Assembly (NCBI GenBank): GCA_963664225.1
Contig: OY760937.1
Location: 1,632,001 to 1,696,000 of the forward strand
Length of the DNA: 64,000 bases
DNA from: Verrucomicrobiia bacterium
GTDB lineage: Bacteria > Verrucomicrobiota > Verrucomicrobiia > Limisphaerales > UBA1319
Reading direction: 5' to 3'
In this document: in pieces, positions 25,394 through 47,658 of the stretch
How the letters are laid out: each line of letters opens with the position of its first letter
How positions within the stretch are numbered: the first letter of the stretch is position 1
The notes under the pieces: generated by a model
The model's input: the letters and a program-made list of their open reading frames with translations, nothing else
What the model was told of the DNA's origin: nothing
Databases searched by the model: none
Program-made: the position numbers and the translations under genes

Positions 25394-27368
25394 GTAGAGT
25401 AGGCGAAATGGACGGATTGAATGGCCGTGGCCAATGACCGTCGCATTTCGCCCCTCATCGAACCGGACAGGCGGTTTTCCCGCATCCGGCTCTCCGGGGA
25501 TCATACGTTGCATCGCTTCGACGTCATCGTTTCCATGCCGCATATTCCGGCATTTGGTATAAACCATAACGCTCATAGAGATCCTCCTTGGGGTATGTGG
25601 ACCATTGCGCCCGACTACATCCGTGTTTGCGCCACAACCATCGTTGTAACTTGCTGCTGACGTATTCGTTCATCTGGCCCATCACCTTGGTGCTGTTCCC
25701 GTAGTGAAAGTAACCCTTCCAACCTTTGAGTTTCTTGTTGAGCTCGGGAATCACCTCTCCGATATCACGCCATAGCGTGCTTCGGTTGAGTTTCTCCCGA
25801 ATCCCGTCTCGAAACTTCTTCTGGCTCTTGGGATGGGGTTCCACATGCGGATATTTCCATTTCCCCTTCCCCTGTCGCATTGTTAGCGCGAATCCCAAGA
25901 ATTTGATGCCATCCTGGCGGAGGTCCACCAAGCGGGTCTTCTTCTCGTTGAGCACTAACTCGCGTTGCTTCAGCCATCGTTCCAGTCGTTCCATCAGTTC
26001 CCGTCCCTGCCCCGGCTGTCCGAGTATCACGAAATCATCCGCGTATCTCACCATCACGGGTTTGAGTTCGCAGCGTTCGTTGACTTCCCAATCCAACTGG
26101 TTGAGGTATGCATTGGCTAAAATCGGCGATACAACCCCGCCTTGCGGAGTCCCCCGTCGATTCTGACCTTGCCCCCCCTTTGTCCCGCCTTTCCCTGTGT
26201 CGCTTTGCGGTTCATTCACGGGCGCGCGCAGCCATCCTGCGATCAGCTTGAGAATTGTTCCATCGCTGACCCGCTTGGCCACTATGCGCAACAAACGCCT
26301 GTGGGGAATGCTGTCAAAATACCCGCTTAAGTCCGCGTCTATAACTTCGACGCGTCCTGTCAGCGTAGCCTTCTTGATCGCCTCCATTGCTTGGTGGGCA
26401 TTGCGTTTGGGATGATAGGCGTAACTGTTCGGATGACTATCGGCTTCCAGAATCGGCAGCAATACAATCACCACCGCTGTCTGCACCACCCGGTCTTTCA
26501 CTGTCGGGATGCCCAGGGGTCGCAGCTTCCCGTCTCCTTTTGGTATATACACACGCTTCACCGGGCTTGGCCGATACTTCTTCGTGCGTAACTCCTCCAG
26601 CAGTTGGTTCCGCCATTGGTCCCAGGCTTCGTCGCTGGCAAGATAGACGTCGCATGTCTGCCCGTCGATCCCAGCCGCGCCATTGTTGTGCGCCACGGAG
26701 GCCATTGCCGTTTCCAGCACGTCCTTCCGCAGCAGTTCTCCGTAGAGGCTGTAAAACCGATACTTCGGCTCAGCCTTGGCTTTGCAATATAGCGCTCGCT
26801 GCAGCTTTTGAACTTTTATCGGGGTTGTTATCCGTTGAAAAAGTGTTTCCACTCCCTCAAGGCCATCTCCCTGTCCCTCGCTGTTTTGATTCGCTTCGAT
26901 CCAAGTGCCTTCCCTTGGCTCCGCCGGGGTTTTGGTCGCCCCAGCTTCTTCGCTACTATGGAAGACTCCGACTTCTCTGGCTGCCCGTGCGGCCTCGGAG
27001 GGTGTTCCTCCTTGCACCGGCGGTTGAGGCTTTATCGCCCCGCCTCCAGAGATCTCCCAGCTTACCTTGGTTTCCCTTCCTGTCGTGTCGCCCTCGCTGA
27101 CTCCGCCGGAATCAACAGCGCCCATTTGACGATTTGATGACGCCGCGTTTCTGCCTTCGCCGTTCGGGTAGCGGCTCGGCTTACCGGTTATTTCGGTTTC
27201 GGAGCTCATTTGATGAGGTTTACTTTCGTTACGACCCGACAGTTCTTTCAGCGTCCCGCTTGTGGTTCGGCCTCACGGCCTCGTCCCGGACGCTGCATTT
27301 CGGTCGTGAACCGTCTAATTCGACCGGCGGGACTTTCACCCACGAGGCTACCAATTTCACTGGCGCAC
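25394..27368 (-). mobile_element. Group II intron 1 (complete, 1975 nt)
   Basis: 5' GTGCG at 27368; domain V GAGCCGGATGCGGGAAAACCGCCTGTCCGGTTCG; 3' end CTACTCTAC at 25394; EBS1 ACCCGA (27164-27169) complementary to the 5' exon end TCGGGT. Confidence 0.92.
25524..26852 (-). CDS. ltrA: Group II intron reverse transcriptase/maturase, no HNH domain
   Basis: [43 protein letters not shown], domain X. The frame is open to 27209; start placed at GTG 26852 (uncertain). Confidence 0.93.
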   Translation of the reverse strand: METLFQRITTPIKVQKLQRALYCKAKAEPKYRFYSLYGELLRKDVLETAMASVAHNNGAAGIDGQTCDVYLASDEAWDQWRNQLLEELRTKKYRPSPVKRVYIPKGDGKLRPLGIPTVKDRVVQTAVVIVLLPILEADSHPNSYAYHPKRNAHQAMEAIKKATLTGRVEVIDADLSGYFDSIPHRRLLRIVAKRVSDGTILKLIAGWLRAPVNEPQSDTGKGGTKGGQGQNRRGTPQGGVVSPILANAYLNQLDWEVNERCELKPVMVRYADDFVILGQPGQGRELMERLERWLKQRELVLNEKKTRLVDLRQDGIKFLGFALTMRQGKGKWKYPHVEPHPKSQKKFRDGIREKLNRSTLWRDIGEVIPELNKKLKGWKGYFHYGNSTKVMGQMNEYVSSKLQRWLWRKHGCSRAQWSTYPKEDLYERYGLYQMPEYAAWKR

Positions 27369-42474: not shown

Positions 42475-42981
42475 ATCCGTGGCATCCGTCATATCCGTGG
42501 TTAAAAATCTGCCCCTGCCAACCCCACGCGGCGGCAGTTCCCAAAGCATCCAAACAACCCGGCATCTCTCAATACGCCTTCTCCCCGGGAAGGCAGGATG
42601 AGAATTCCCCTAACCCGAAATTTCGCGCATTGAACCCCTGAACCAAATATTTATGCATGTTGCTTGTAACGAGTGACATCCCCTTTGGGTTCTTGGGGAG
42701 GGCGTGCGTCAATGCCATTTTCCCTTTCGCATGGTTCGCATATTTCGTGGTTAAATTCCCTCTCTGAATTCCCAATTATCGGCGTTCATTCGCGGTTATT
42801 AGTTCTCCATGGTTAAATCTTTTCCTCCTGGTCCTAATCTGTGTTTCTCTGAGCCATCTGCGGATTTCCCCTGCTTATCCCAATCCGTGCCATCCGTGAT
42901 ATCAGTGGTTAAAAATCCTGCACATCCTGCTTATCCATGTTGATATATCTTCACCCACTTCTTTCCATGTAACTTGCAATG
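42475..42981. repeat. Mosaic of REP-like repeats, truncated by IS3
   Basis: Homologous to 27579-28226; several triple 9-mer arms ending GGTTAA. Confidence 0.75.
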
Positions 42982-43023: not shown

Positions 43024-43866
43024 TTATTTGGATATATTTTCAAAGTCAACAGGAGACATGTAATTGAGTGTGCTGTGTAAACGCTGTCGATTATAGAAGG
43101 TCTCGATGTAATCAAAGATGGCCTGTCGGGCCTGGGCTCGGGTCGCAAAGACCCGGCGATAAACCAGTTCTTGTTTAAGGGTGCTCCAAAAGGATTCCAT
43201 GGCCGCGTTGTCATAGCAGTTGCCACTGCGGCTCATGCTCGCCAGGGCACCGGAGGTTTCCATCGCCCGGCGATAATCCTGACTGGCATACTGGACTCCC
43301 CGGTCTGAATGAAAGAGCAATCCGGGTTCGGGTTGCCGCTGAATGCAGGCCATGTTCCAGGCCGACAGGACCAGTTCGGTGTCAATGTGCTCGCTCATGC
43401 CCCAACCCACGATGCGGCGGCTGTAAAGGTCTTCAATGCCAGCGAGATAGAGCCAGCCTTCATCGGTGGCAATGTAGGTGATGTCCCCGACCCAAGTCTG
43501 ATTGCGTTGGTCCGGTGGCGCGGCTTGAGCCAGCCGGTTGGGGGCAATGGGCTGATCATGATTGCTGTCGGTGGTTCGGACCTTGAAACGCTTTTTAGAA
43601 CGCGCCTGCAGGCCTTCCTGGCGCATTAAACGGGCGATGTGGTTGCGACCATGGCAGTGCCCCTGGTGCTTCAAGGCGATCTGGATGCGCGGGCTGCCAT
43701 AGGTTTTGCGGCTGCCATTGAAAATCGTTGTGATGGTCCCTTTCAATACGGCGTCCTGACGGGCACGCAACGAAGGCTGGATTTGCCGTCGGCACCAATC
43801 ATAGTAGCCGCTAAAAGACACATCAAAGGCCTCACAGAGCAGGCGGATGGGATGATCGACTTTCAT
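43024..43866 (-). CDS. IS3 transposase OrfB (DDE)
   Basis: YGSPRI, WVGDITY, HSDRGVQY, DNAAMESF..LKQE, YNRQRLHSTL. Confidence 0.95.
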   Translation of the reverse strand: MKVDHPIRLLCEAFDVSFSGYYDWCRRQIQPSLRARQDAVLKGTITTIFNGSRKTYGSPRIQIALKHQGHCHGRNHIARLMRQEGLQARSKKRFKVRTTDSNHDQPIAPNRLAQAAPPDQRNQTWVGDITYIATDEGWLYLAGIEDLYSRRIVGWGMSEHIDTELVLSAWNMACIQRQPEPGLLFHSDRGVQYASQDYRRAMETSGALASMSRSGNCYDNAAMESFWSTLKQELVYRRVFATRAQARQAIFDYIETFYNRQRLHSTLNYMSPVDFENISK

Positions 43867-44216
43867 CGCTTCAACCCGTTGATAGCGTTGCTCTGGGGGT
43901 CCGAAAGAATTCCCAACGTTTTTTTTAGAATCTCCCGCTGCTGGCGCACATAGTCCAGTTCGCGCAACAAAGCGGCATTGTCGGCCAGCAACTGCTCACG
44001 GGTCTTTGTTTCGGCTCCTTCCCCTGTTGGCAGCGGCACATATTTTGCGCGCCAGGCATAGAGCCGCTCCATTTTTATCCCCAACTCAGCCGCCACCGTG
44101 GCTGCCGATTTCCCGCTGGATTTCCAGAGGTTCACGGCTTCCTGCTTAAATGCAGAATCATACTTCGGATGAGTCTTGGAATCGGGAATCACAGATTGCT
44201 TCATACGGTTTTTCAT
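43863..44216 (-). CDS. IS3 transposase OrfA (HTH)
   Basis: KYDSAFKQEAV...VAAELGI..LYAW...EILKK; A8C slippery run at about 43918-43926, consistent with a -1 frameshift. Confidence 0.9.
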   Translation of the reverse strand: MKNRMKQSVIPDSKTHPKYDSAFKQEAVNLWKSSGKSAATVAAELGIKMERLYAWRAKYVPLPTGEGAETKTREQLLADNAALLRELDYVRQQREILKKTLGILSDPQSNAINGLKR

Positions 44217-44533
44217 TAAGTTTCGCTCCGCTCCTGTGTCCGTCAAATCGGGGCAACCTCATCCCTCCCAGCCCCAGCGGGGCGACATGTTTATCGGCCA
44301 TCCAAACGGATTCCCCAATTCCACCGCAGCTCGTCCGGTTACTGGCCCCCGGGCAACCCGGAACGGGTTGCATCACTCAGCCCCGGGTTGCCCGCCGGGG
44401 GCTACCCGGGGTCCTCGTCCCTCAGAATCCCCAACGCTGTAGGCGTTGAATCATATCCCATCCTGTCCACCCATGCATAAATGTCTTTTCTGCCATTATG
44501 CGTTCTTTTCCTTTGTGGTCTTTGAGCTCTCTG

Positions 44534-46500
44534 GAAAGCGCCAAGCAAAGTTTGGTGGCTGTAGTCAAATGCAACGAGTTGATCATGATAACAGGTCGAG
44601 AGTCATGTAGCCGCGTCCAAAGCGTGGTGGGGCGACCCGCCGCGTTCAAGCTGGGCAAGGCAAAGGTGCGAGCCGTAGCGTCTGCGAACTCGATTCAGCC
44701 TCGTTACTCTAAAGCGGGAGTGGCCAGCCTGTCAGAGAAGGTGAAGCCAGCATTGGAGGGGAAGATTCGACCAGAAGCACCCTTCAAGCTCCCCGGGGTC
44801 AGAGGAGACAGCGCGTACCCAAACAACCATCAGGAACTTGGGAGACCCTGCCTGAACCTCGGTCCCGAGACCGGGGAACGCACGTCGGGAAGCCATAACC
44901 GGCGGGCGCTCAGGATCAGGGAGTCGGACGGGCTCATAGTAGCTGCGAAATCCCGGTCAAGCCGGGATGGAGCCAAGGAGCCCTGGCCAGAGTCAAGCCG
45001 AGTCAGAGGGAACTGGAGCTGATTGAAGTGAAAACTTCCACGACAGAACAAGCGGTGGAGGAACTTTCCTTTCGGGAAGCGATCCTGCCGCCCAAACTTC
45101 AGGAACTGAGACAGAAGCTGGGCCGGAAAGCCAAACAAGAGAAGCGATTCCGCTTCTACAGCCTCTACGGACTGGTGTTCCTGCCGGAGGTGCTGCAAGC
45201 GGCATGGGCTGCGGTGCGGCGCAATGGCGGGGCACCGGGCGTGGACGGAGTGAGCATCGACCAGATCACCGCGACACCTGAAAGTGAAGCGGCGTTTCTG
45301 GGAACGATCAGGCAGAGCCTGCGGGACAAGACCTACCGCGCCCAACCGGTGCGGCGGGTCTATATACCGAAGGCAAACGGAAAACTGCGGCCACTGGGAA
45401 TCCCGACGGTGAAGGACCGGGTGGTGCAAGCGGCGGTATTGCTGATTCTGGAGCCCATCTTCGAAGCGGACTTTGAGGATTGTTCCTACGGGTTTCGGCC
45501 CGGACGGTCGGCGCACGACGCATTGCAAACCCTCCAAAAACACCTGAAGGAGGGGAAGAACGCAGTGTATGACGCGGACCTGTCCGGATACTTCGACAGC
45601 ATCCCTCACGACAAGCTTCTGGCTTGCGTGCGGATGCGCGTGGTGGACGGCGCGGTTTTGGGACTCATCCGGCAATGGCTGGCGGCCCCCGTGGTGGAAC
45701 CTCCCCAAGGAGAGGAACCGCCTCGGGTCAACCGCCGGGATCGGGGCACGCCGCAAGGCGGAGTCCTCTCTCCGTTACTGGCCAACATATACCTGCACTG
45801 GTTCGACCACCTGTTCCAAAGGGCGGATGGACCGGCGCACTGGGCGGATGCCCGGCTCGTTCGCTATGCGGACGACTTTGTGGTCATGGCCCGGTATATG
45901 GGTCCCAAGCTGCGAGCATGGATTGAGGAAAAGCTGGAGGGCTGGCTCACACTGGAAATCAACCGGGACAAAACCCGGGTGGTCAACGTCAACGAGCAAA
46001 GCCTGGACTTTCTGGGCTACACCTTCCGGTATGACCGGGATCAATTCGGCAGGGCGTTTCACTACCTCAACCTGTGTCCTTCGGGCAAGGCGATGGAACG
46101 GGAGAGGCAGGCGTTGCGACTGCTGATCAATGCCGGGCAAAGTCATACGCCGCTGCCGGAGTTGATCGGGCGGATCAACCGTCATTTGCGGGGTTGGAGC
46201 AACTACTTCAACCTCGGACAACCCCGACGGGCCTTTCGCCAGATCAACCACTTCGTGAGAGTGCGGCTGGGCAAACACCTGCGACGACGAAGCCAGCGGG
46301 GCTGGCGCGTCCGTCAGGGAGTCACGCTCTATGCCCATCTCGAAACACTGGGTCTGAAGGCATTGTGAATGCAATCTGGAAAAGACGACTCTGGCGAAAG
46401 CCGGATGTGGGAAATCTGCATGTCCGGTTTGACGAGGGAGAGGTGAGCGGCGGTCATTGGCCTTTGCGCCTTTCATCCCGTGCTCTCCTCTCTACTCTAC
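44534..46500 (+). mobile_element. Group II intron 2 (complete, 1967 nt)
   Basis: Boundaries fixed by uninterrupted repeat copies (GAGCTCTCTG|CGGTTGA); domain V AAAGCCGGATGTGGGAAATCTGCATGTCCGGTTT; 3' CTACTCTAC; EBS1 CAGAGA at 44733-44738. Confidence 0.92.
45028..46368 (+). CDS. ltrA: Group II intron reverse transcriptase/maturase, no HNH domain
   Basis: [47 protein letters not shown], domain X. Confidence 0.95.
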
Positions 46501-47658
46501 CGGTTGATTAATTCCTCCGAATCCTGTCCATCCTGATCATCCATGTCTGTTCTGAACATTTTTCGTCTGCCGAAGAACCTTGTCGTGCACCCAATTCTCC
46601 ATTCCCTGCATTATCGCATCCCTCCAAGCCCCAGCGGGGCGAAATCTTTATCGGCCATCCAAACCGATCCCCTAATTCCACCGCAGGTCGTCCGGTTACT
46701 GGCCCCCAGGGCAACCCGGAACGGGTTGCATCACTCAGCCCCGGGTTGCCCGCCGAGGGCTACCCGGGGTCCTCGTCCTTCAGAATCCCCAACGCTGTAG
46801 GCGTTGAATCATATCCCATCCTGTCCACCCATGCATAAATGTCTTTTCTGCCATTATGCGTTCTTTTTCTTTGTGGTCTTTGAGCTCTCTGCGGTTGATT
46901 AATTCCTCCGAATCCTGTCCATCCTGATCATCCATGTCTGTTCCGAACGTTTTTCGCCTGCCGAAGAACCTTGTCGTGCACCCAATTCTCCATTCCCTGC
47001 ATTATCGCATCCCTCCCAGCCCCGGCGGGGCGACATGTTTATAGCAAAAGCCACCTCTCGCGACCAATTCCAAGCCCCAGCGGGGCGACATGTTTATCCG
47101 CCATCCAAACGGATTCCCCAATTCCACCGCAGCTCGTCCGGTTACTGGCCCCCAGGCAACCCGGAACGGGTTGCATCACTCAGCCCCGGGTTGCCCGCCG
47201 GGGGCTACCCGAGGTCCTCGTCCCTCAGAATCCCCAACGCTGTAGGCGTTGAATCATATCCCACCCTGTCCACCCATGCATAAATGTCTTTTCTGCCATT
47301 ATGCGTTCTTTTTCTTTGTGGTCTTTGAGCTCTCTGCGGTTGATTAATTCCTCCGAATCCTGTCCATCCTGATCATCCATGTCTGTTCTGAACGTTTTTC
47401 GCCTGCCGAAGAACCTTGTCGTGCACCCAAAACCGAAGCTGTTGGATACTCCACCCCCTGTTTTCCCTGAAACCTCCGCGCCCCTTTTCCCCGCCCATAG
47501 CCTTCCGCTCCCCGCTGCTTCCCGCTGCTTCCCGCTGCCTCCCGCCGACCATTATTGCCTCACAAACCACTTGACGCTATTTTCATGGAGGCACACTCTG
47601 CGATTCAACACGGAGAAATGAGCACAAACATGATCAAACTTACCGGTTTTCTTGCCAT

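Follow-up and report, generated by a model that had tools for sequence, protein, structure and literature searches.

An endonuclease-less group II intron at one of three identical target sites in a verrucomicrobial tandem array

In the genome of a Verrucomicrobiia bacterium (assembly GCA_963664225.1, contig OY760937.1), a complete group II intron of 1967 nucleotides (nt), here called intron 2, occupies one of three identical sites in a tandem array and leaves the other two empty. The locus raises the question of what such an intron reads in its target, a short sequence recognised by base pairing or a family of repeats as such. The window analysed is a stretch of 64,000 nt (positions 1,632,001 to 1,696,000 of the forward strand) from a genome that is one 5.78-Mb contig, and positions below are window coordinates unless given for the genome; a second group II intron in the window is called intron 1. 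Intron 2 is very probably an intact and recently mobile intron of IIB-like structure and of the IIE/IIF kind, without endonuclease and most likely class F-like, whose targets are chosen by base pairing.

The occupied site and its empty counterparts

Comparison with the empty sites, together with Rfam matches, places intron 2 at 44534-46500 on the plus strand. A first-pass annotation, made from the sequence alone, had claimed that removal of this segment restores the sequence of two uninterrupted sites, and it does so exactly: excision joins GAGCTCTCTG (44524-44533) to CGGTTGATTAA (from 46501), and the 21-mer across this junction is found intact at two other places. These two are the only matches with up to two mismatches on either strand of the 5.78-Mb genome. 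The boundaries cannot be shifted, as the 5′ exon ends in G but the intron in C, and the intron begins with G but the 3′ exon with C. An intron start at AAGCG, or assignment of the exon G to the intron, was considered and ruled out, as the empty sites allow no such shift. The termini are 5′ GAAAGCG and CUACUCUAC 3′. Occupied and empty sites agree without a break for 23 nt leftward of the junction and for 52-57 nt rightward of it; within 150 nt, the left flanks match at 147/150 positions and the right flanks at 143/150 or 110/150. In run X23, one of four short-read runs from two studies, a single 124-nt contig, which does not distinguish the near-identical empty sites, covers 46851-46974 at empty site 2.

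46878-46898, plus strand: empty target site 2, exact 21-mer, junction 46891/46892
47323-47343, plus strand: empty target site 3, exact 21-mer, junction 47336/47337

The RNA and protein parts of the intron were assigned from profile matches. Domains V and VI match RF00029 over 46396-46500 (43.4 bits, cut-off 40), an alignment that ends exactly at the 3′ end deduced from the empty sites, and A46494 is the inferred candidate for the branch point. The encoded reverse transcriptase (RT) scores 387 bits against TIGR04416 (cut-off 300), and Pfam finds no endonuclease domain in it, the GIIM domain ending at residue 427 of 446 with no later domain. Both introns of the window had been described as lacking an endonuclease and as located in repeated intergenic DNA, and both statements are borne out, each protein consisting of RVT_1 plus GIIM only.

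44534-44540, plus strand: non-canonical 5′ terminus GAAAGCG, fixed by the empty sites (consensus GUGYG)
44575-44808, plus strand: core of domains I-IV, RF02005, 70.4 bits, E 1.3e-17, full model length
45028-46368, plus strand: reverse transcriptase/maturase of 446 amino acids, Pfam RVT_1 at residues 113-333 and GIIM at 360-427, YADD motif
46398-46430, plus strand: domain V (D5) with AGC triad, 4-bp upper helix, 5-nt loop GAAAU closed by G-C and 2-nt AU bulge, from the RF00029 alignment and hand pairing
46431-46500, plus strand: domain VI and 3′ end, the intron ending in AC, with the RF00029 alignment ending at 46500

By BLAST and alignment, the three sites are the unit junctions of a tandem array with a period of about 445 bp and units 85-96% alike, in which modules B and C precede each junction and module A follows it. 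The first unit is split by the intron into 44260-44533 and 46501-46616.

44260-44533, plus strand: partial first unit (modules B and C), which makes up the 5′ exon side at the occupied site and matches positions 117-391 of the next unit at 96% identity
46501, plus strand: IBS3/+1 position of the occupied site, C, the first base of the second unit (BLAST and alignment)
46501-46891, plus strand: second unit, A-B-C, 391 nt (BLAST and alignment)
46892-47336, plus strand: third unit, 445 nt, with a 54-nt internal insertion (BLAST and alignment)
47337-47430, plus strand: closing partial unit made of module A alone, which matches unit positions 1-94 at 97.9% identity

A one-in-three occupancy would lose its meaning if the tandem copies were an assembly artefact, which had been named as one of the findings that would overturn the first-pass annotation. 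The short-read contigs of the four runs do stop at each repeat edge, and none crosses the array. The units are non-identical, unlike the products of collapse or expansion, the genome is a single contig, and contigs of all four runs match pieces of the region at 99-100%; an artefact is extremely improbable, and the diverged copies are taken as genuine. It is also very unlikely, if slightly less so, that the occupancy arose from the dynamics of the array, either by unequal crossing-over that copied only empty units after the insertion or by precise loss of the intron from two of them. Tandem arrays expand and contract, and this region holds an insertion sequence (IS). Against such a history, the units look older than the insertion, with 85-96% identity and a 54-nt indel, while the intron and two distant copies of it are 100% identical, although this argument from age carries little weight if the intron copies undergo gene conversion. 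Because the units differ by 4-15% and the intron copy is identical to two others, the array would predate the insertion, and would have offered three identical sites of which one has been invaded so far.

Target recognition by base pairing

The pairing of exon-binding site 1 (EBS1), CAGAGA, with TCTCTG at six of six positions, as first proposed, is correct. EBS1 lies at 44733-44738 within an 8-nt loop of a hairpin that Rfam aligns as the EBS1 stem-loop, and its pairing with intron-binding site 1 (IBS1) covaries in relatives beyond permuted controls. The covariation input consisted of 80 related loci (designated L and a number) and the four genomic copies of intron 2, with the splice site and the EBS1 and EBS2 loops set by fixed motif rules; 45 rows passed, 44 of them unique, and ten with visibly mis-set 5′ ends were kept. 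At least five contiguous EBS1-IBS1 pairs counted from the splice site are present in 29 of 44 matched rows as opposed to 13% of 1864 cross pairs, and the observed mean was reached by 0 of 2000 permutations. Examples of EBS1/IBS1 pairs that have changed together are CGGAU/ATCCG (L001), CUAAA/TTTAG (L002), CAGAU/ATCTG (L005), CAAAG/CTTTG (L012) and CAGAAA/TTTCTG (L020).

44511-44533, plus strand: 9-nt periodic stretch CTTTGTGGT / CTTTGAGCT / CTCTG, followed across the splice site by CGGT, read from the sequence
44524-44527, plus strand: IBS2 GAGC, GAG pairing with CUC of EBS2
44528-44533, plus strand: IBS1 TCTCTG, 6/6 with EBS1
44706-44709, plus strand: core of EBS2, ACUC, within the internal loop that follows GCCUCGUU, from covariation in relatives
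44728-44741, plus strand: EBS1 hairpin CCU-GUCAGAGA-AGG (in DNA, CCT-GTCAGAGA-AGG), from Rfam alignment, minimum-free-energy fold and covariation

The second pairing stands in part. At least four Watson-Crick pairs between EBS2 and the exon occur in 28 of 44 matched rows versus 41% of cross pairs (1 of 2000 permutations). At the EBS2 position, relatives carry ACAC, ACGC or AGAC, and their own exons GTGT, GCGT or GTCT at -11 to -7, the pairing stretching to 7-8 bp in some of them, as with ACGCCAAG/CTTGGCGT in L023. The candidate originally put forward in intron 2, CTCTAA (44707-44712) facing TTTGAG, does form five pairs in six as counted, but covariation extends only to its 5′ part, ACUC with GAG(U/C), and of CTCTAA only the CUC part pairs at all four genomic sites. 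The covarying EBS/IBS base pairing explains the target choice of intron 2. In the periodic stretch before the splice site, variants resembling IBS1 have their ends 9 nt (at 44524) and 18 nt (at 44515) upstream, and by hand count they form six pairs with CAGAGA (TCTTTG, one of them G-U) and five (CCTTTG).

Intron 2 is present in the genome in four full copies, three of them 100% identical and the fourth 99.2%. The fourth copy carries 16 substitutions, 15 within the open reading frame, only 4 of which change an amino acid, and the frame is open; because these changes are mostly silent and the other copies identical, the RT appears to be functional and under selection, and the spread of the intron recent. 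The variant bases of the fourth copy are represented by minority contigs in three of the four runs (X20, X22 and X23). All four copies lie between genes. Copies 2 and 4 are found shortly 3′ of a gene in the same orientation, copy 4 about 55 nt past a terminator-like hairpin, and copy 3 about 70 nt 5′ of a gene in the same orientation, the identities of these neighbouring genes resting on a by-eye reading of the sequence.

The four sites share GAG(C/T), a gap of 0-1 nt, and (T/C)N(T)YTG followed across the junction by YGG, with little besides. IBS1 reads TCTCTG, TCTTTG, CTTTTG and CATCTG, in each case followed by YGG, and IBS2 reads GAGC, GAGT, GAGT and GAGC at -10 to -7 or -11 to -8. Counted from the splice site, EBS1 forms 6, 6, 5 and 4 pairs; the script count of 7 at site 2 takes in one further base.

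A fifth trace is a 65-nt fragment at genome positions 5595614-5595678 on the minus strand, 87.7% identical to the 5′ end of intron 2 and preceded by GCATATTTCG. The fragment appears to be what is left of a related intron whose EBS1 was different. It adjoins the same 'agccccagc...gacat' type of repeat that occurs in the window.

The proposed course of insertion is conditional throughout. Intron 2 would be transcribed by read-through from host promoters upstream and spliced with the aid of its own RT/maturase. The resulting RNA-protein particle would reverse-splice into the top strand at IBS2 (GAG-Y), followed by IBS1 (YNYYTG) and a 3′ exon starting with YGG, these bases being read by EBS2 (ACUC), EBS1 (CAGAGA) and a putative EBS3. 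Since the protein has no endonuclease, cDNA synthesis is presumed to be primed by the nascent DNA strand at a replication fork, the mode described for endonuclease-less introns (PMC4424553).

Class and relatives of intron 2

The first-pass annotation had set the targeting of the two introns against that known for class IIC, which is not the fitting comparison. Judged by its sequence features, intron 2 is not a IIC intron but an IIB-like intron of the IIE/IIF kind, because it has an AGC triad and a 5-nt loop in D5, a covarying EBS2, a 6-nt EBS1 and ends that depart from the IIC consensus. The AGC triad differs from the triad typical of IIC introns. The ends, GAAAGCGCCAAGCAAAG and CUCUACUCUAC, do not fit the IIC boundary consensus of 5′ GUNYGCCNRGCAUGG and CCUACYCGAU 3′ (PMC4028801). 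Traits described for IIE/IIF introns are a 5-nt D5 loop in place of a tetraloop, small size, an IIB-like layout, an RT-X protein, α′ at the tip of the DId3 stem-loop and an extra bulge loop in DId3 (PMC3753933). Intron 2 shares the 5-nt D5 loop and the RT-X protein without D/En region; its EBS1 and EBS2 both lie in domain Id, and the IBS sites lie directly upstream of the splice site. Homing into sequence-defined sites is described for every lineage apart from class C (PMC4424553), and sequence-specific homing is the norm for introns of this IIE/IIF kind.

Within that kind, intron 2 is probably class F-like, an assignment for which the tree references are Ni.ha.I1 (g3) and Sr.me.I2 (g1) only. 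Class F in the strict sense (Simon 2008, Toro 2013) comprises introns whose RTs cluster with Ge.ur.I1, So.us.I2 and Pe.th.I2. In Table S2 of PMC3552965, Ni.ha.I1 is entered as 'g3, Bacterial F'; its RT is 43% identical to that of intron 2, and the RTs from plasmid records are at most 47.5% identical. A quick maximum-likelihood tree of 37 rows comprised loci chosen for near-full coverage (34 of the 80, with L022 dropped for its stop codons), both introns of the window and the two references. In this tree, intron 2 groups with L001, L002 and L005 (SH-aLRT 99), all from Verrucomicrobiota and exactly the introns in the tree that start with GAAAGCG, and the group falls within a 26-row clade (99) that leaves out intron 1, Ni.ha.I1 and Sr.me.I2. 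As far as these sequences go, the GAAAGCG start marks a small verrucomicrobial clade. Its retention in a clade whose members match their own exons, together with the identical copies, argues for a functional intron with predicted splicing. A metagenome scan with the 5′-end pattern returned 80 loci, only 9 of which contain introns, the rest being chance matches in coding DNA.

Several relatives show features of their own. L146 and L147, on one 1104-nt metagenome contig, are two GAAAGCG-type starts in opposite orientation, one of them preceded by ...CTCCACTCTAC TCGATGTTCTCTG, which resembles the 3′ end of an intron of the same lineage 13 nt upstream; they may be tandem introns. A 5′-truncated close relative at L003:2437-4290, with an RT 77% identical, starts in domain I and lies in apparent coding DNA. 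Truncation at the 5′ end is the usual product of incomplete reverse transcription. In L001, from a verrucomicrobial metagenome-assembled genome, an Acido-Lenti-1 RNA match (1947-1992, 46.4 bits, cut-off 37) stands about 500 nt 5′ of the intron. The Acido-Lenti-1 motif has been noted near group II introns.

Among described introns, Ge.ur.I1-1 of Geobacter uraniireducens, a class F intron, is the closest parallel in behaviour, and its published repetition of IBS variants strengthens the class F-like assignment. As described, its IBS1 is AUUCG and its IBS2 CGUGU, with variants repeated 9 and 19 nt upstream, and its use of alternative 5′ splice sites in vitro is an unexplained oddity (PMC3753933). 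Going by that description, intron 2 has in common with it a compact IIB-like ribozyme with a 5-nt D5 loop, an RT-X protein without endonuclease, a non-coding location, EBS1 and EBS2 in domain Id, IBS sites directly upstream, and IBS1 variants about 9 and 18-19 nt upstream; the (C)GUGU-type IBS2 of Ge.ur.I1-1 resembles that of many relatives in the present set. Intron 2 differs in its start, GAAAGCG instead of GUGYG, and in its EBS letters, CAGAGA and ACUC.

RmInt1 of Sinorhizobium meliloti (class D, IIB3) is likewise reported to lack an endonuclease and to home by EBS/IBS pairing into a repeated, harmless target of which some copies are empty (PMC1802570, PMC5010178). Unlike intron 2, it belongs to another RT class and RNA subtype as described, and its target is the multi-copy insertion sequence ISRm2011-2, where that of intron 2 is a short intergenic motif with a periodic structure. 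Class C (IIC) introns are described as inserting after terminators or into attC sites (PMC4424553, PMC12584367). Intron 2 is similar in being small, intergenic and endonuclease-less, in finding its best structure match in the GsI-IIC RT, and in the position of copy 4 past a terminator-like hairpin; no hairpin stands beside sites 1-3, however, and the features of its RNA listed above are foreign to that class.

Some observations weigh against the proposed identity and mechanism of intron 2. Ni.ha.I1 matches RF02003, whereas introns 1 and 2 match RF02005, and the best match of the RT among solved structures is a IIC enzyme, the GsI-IIC RT (1.8e-60), in a library without E or F enzymes. The 5′ end departs from GUGYG. 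Seventeen further sites in the genome, one of them at 42851, fit a loose form of the target pattern yet are empty, so either homing is infrequent or other determinants exist. With dnaA at 2.99 Mb and the GC skew as guides, only 2 of the 4 copies of intron 2 are oriented as the rule of insertion into the lagging-strand template would have it, and four copies are too few to judge the rule for this intron.

The loosely fitting empty site of the window, at 42851-42863, reads GAGCCATCTG followed across the would-be junction by CGG.

Taken with these reservations, intron 2 is a further class F-like, endonuclease-less intron with sequence-specific homing, fairly ordinary aside from its odd first bases, and the known working of group II introns is unchanged by these findings. 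With three identical targets inside 3 kb, and one filled by an intron that retains identical sister copies, the locus amounts to a natural competition set-up for homing frequency, and the GAAAGCG clade speaks for positions 2-4 of the near-universal GUGYG motif being open to replacement in this lineage. The recurrent link of the wider lineage to 9-10-nt periodic repeats provides a genomic context for the alternative 5′ splice sites of Ge.ur.I1-1.

Repeats at the target sites, intron 1 and the surroundings

The target had been described as a palindromic arm resembling repetitive extragenic palindromic (REP) elements, and the lineage as dedicated to such arms, recognising a repeat family and possibly its structure, which would add a fourth niche beside homing sites, terminators and attC. 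The arm itself was not recovered. No long inverted partner of the target was found in the window, the best candidate being 10 nt at 90% about 200 nt away, and a hairpin partner is missing from all four genomic sites, where any reverse complement within 120 nt differs from the final 12 nt of the exon at 4 or more positions.

The evidence from relatives is more favourable. The junction 8-mer recurs upstream within 45 nt at up to one mismatch in 13 of 30 sites versus 5% of permuted junctions, and at up to two mismatches in 21 of 30 versus 29%, in a test that kept four rows with mis-set boundaries. In 6 of 29 sites of relatives, compared with 0.2% in controls, the last 12 nt of the 5′ exon form the 3′ (distal) arm of a long inverted repeat. 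Three sites, L017-L019, stand at the end of one short hairpin, and L016, L032 and L038 resemble the 5′ exon of Ge.ur.I1-1, itself described as having a 9-10-nt period (PMC3753933), in motif type and period. The association of the relatives with repeats is real, and its excess may be overstated since the sites are not phylogenetically independent.

In two acidobacterial loci, L009 and L022, the intron lies between the arms of a terminator-like hairpin (GCGGACCTG, then TTCC CTGGGTCCGC GGCTTTTC after the junction), in the loop and not after the stem.

The expectation that homologues should be associated with such repeats thus holds for part of the relatives but not for all sites of intron 2 itself. 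A periodic CTTTG-type motif is common to sites 1 and 2, while sites 3 and 4 lie outside such repeats and have only the IBS2-IBS1 signature of about 13 nt followed by YGG. The motif family is not abundant in the genome, with 85 matches as compared with 37-52 in Markov simulations, and copies of intron 1 contain many of the 85. As the covarying base pairing already explains the choice of target, dedicated targeting of repeat arms is judged unlikely, and homing by EBS/IBS pairing is the reading retained here.

A further proposal is offered tentatively, and it is rather doubtful. Class F-type introns of a clade that crosses phyla (Verrucomicrobiota, Acidobacteriota, Planctomycetota, Pseudomonadota and others) may have specialised on a single type of landing site, the final unit of a pyrimidine-rich intergenic repeat with a 9-10-nt period, which in many cases is the distal arm of a long palindrome. 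The unit before it would be read by EBS2, and the final unit by EBS1 together with the first bases of the 3′ exon; the periodic target would give rise to alternative 5′ splice sites, as observed in vitro for Ge.ur.I1-1, and in the verrucomicrobial subclade GAAAGCG would replace GUGYG without loss of mobility. If true, this specialisation would be a base-pairing counterpart to the structure-based targeting of terminators by IIC introns.

Intron 1 lies at 25394-27368 on the minus strand, with a canonical GUGCG start at 27368, and has 19 identical genomic copies. Like intron 2, it matches RF02005, has a 5-nt D5 loop (GAAAA), encodes an RT-X protein and homes into repeated intergenic DNA. The GUGCG start, the 19 identical copies in one strand pattern and the target set it apart. 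Its target, GGGT followed across the junction by T(T/A)AA, is found at the ends of an inverted-repeat element resembling a miniature inverted-repeat transposable element (MITE), many copies of which are empty. The RTs of the two introns are 42% identical, no nearer to each other than the RT of intron 2 is to that of Ni.ha.I1 (43%). Sequence comparison relates them only at the level of a broad lineage, with targets of different kinds, and the suggestion that both use members of one repeat-arm superfamily is not supported by this comparison.

All 19 copies of intron 1 are on the plus strand at 0-0.95 and 2.99-5.61 Mb of the genome and on the minus strand at 1.66-2.19 Mb, and the changes of strand flank dnaA (2.99 Mb) and the maximum of the GC skew (about 1.4 Mb). 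Because both ends of the MITE-like element are available as sites, and yet a single strand pattern is seen, the distribution has the look of a strong bias in insertion by replication strand, consistent with use of the lagging-strand template. The GC skew lacks a clean V shape, and the strand argument rests on dnaA and the block pattern of intron 1. This pattern suggests very unequal replichores.

At its left end, the tandem array is truncated by an IS3-like element with overlapping orfA and orfB. Three of the four runs (X20, X22 and X24) have contigs that break off at 44261, and contig depth over the element is 2-5 times that of neighbouring DNA in all four; because of these breaks and the raised depth, the element is read as multi-copy, with an end near 44261.

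43024-44261, minus strand: IS3-family insertion sequence, orfB 43024-43866 and orfA 43863-44246 with transposase-like translations, the family name assigned by eye

Tandem Repeats Finder did not report the array, probably owing to the intron and the period limit, and yielded only a 10-nt microsatellite at 47507-47545. No known RNA was found in the repeat unit by Rfam at permissive thresholds, FTX_1-like matches falling far under the cut-offs. The unit was also considered as a MITE with terminal inverted repeats, which was ruled out because the ends do not complement each other.

Within the tandem unit, module B corresponds to a dispersed element, which may be a REP-like element, a MITE or a small RNA; its core spans about 100 nt (GGCAACCCGGAACGGGTTGC ... 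CCCCGGGTTGCCCGCCGAGGGCTACCCGGGG ...), and it has 49-59 genomic BLAST hits, at 44350-44450, 46709-46810 and 47155-47255 in the window and about 55 other places in the genome; it contains 2-3 conserved hairpins and has no Rfam match. The 54-nt insertion of the third unit (46990-47050) doubles the motif AGCCCC(A/G)GCGGGGCGACATGTTTAT, which elsewhere adjoins intron-related DNA. To the left of the insertion sequence, the intergenic stretch at 42700-42960 is crowded with short periodic motifs ending in GGTTAAA or GGTTAT.

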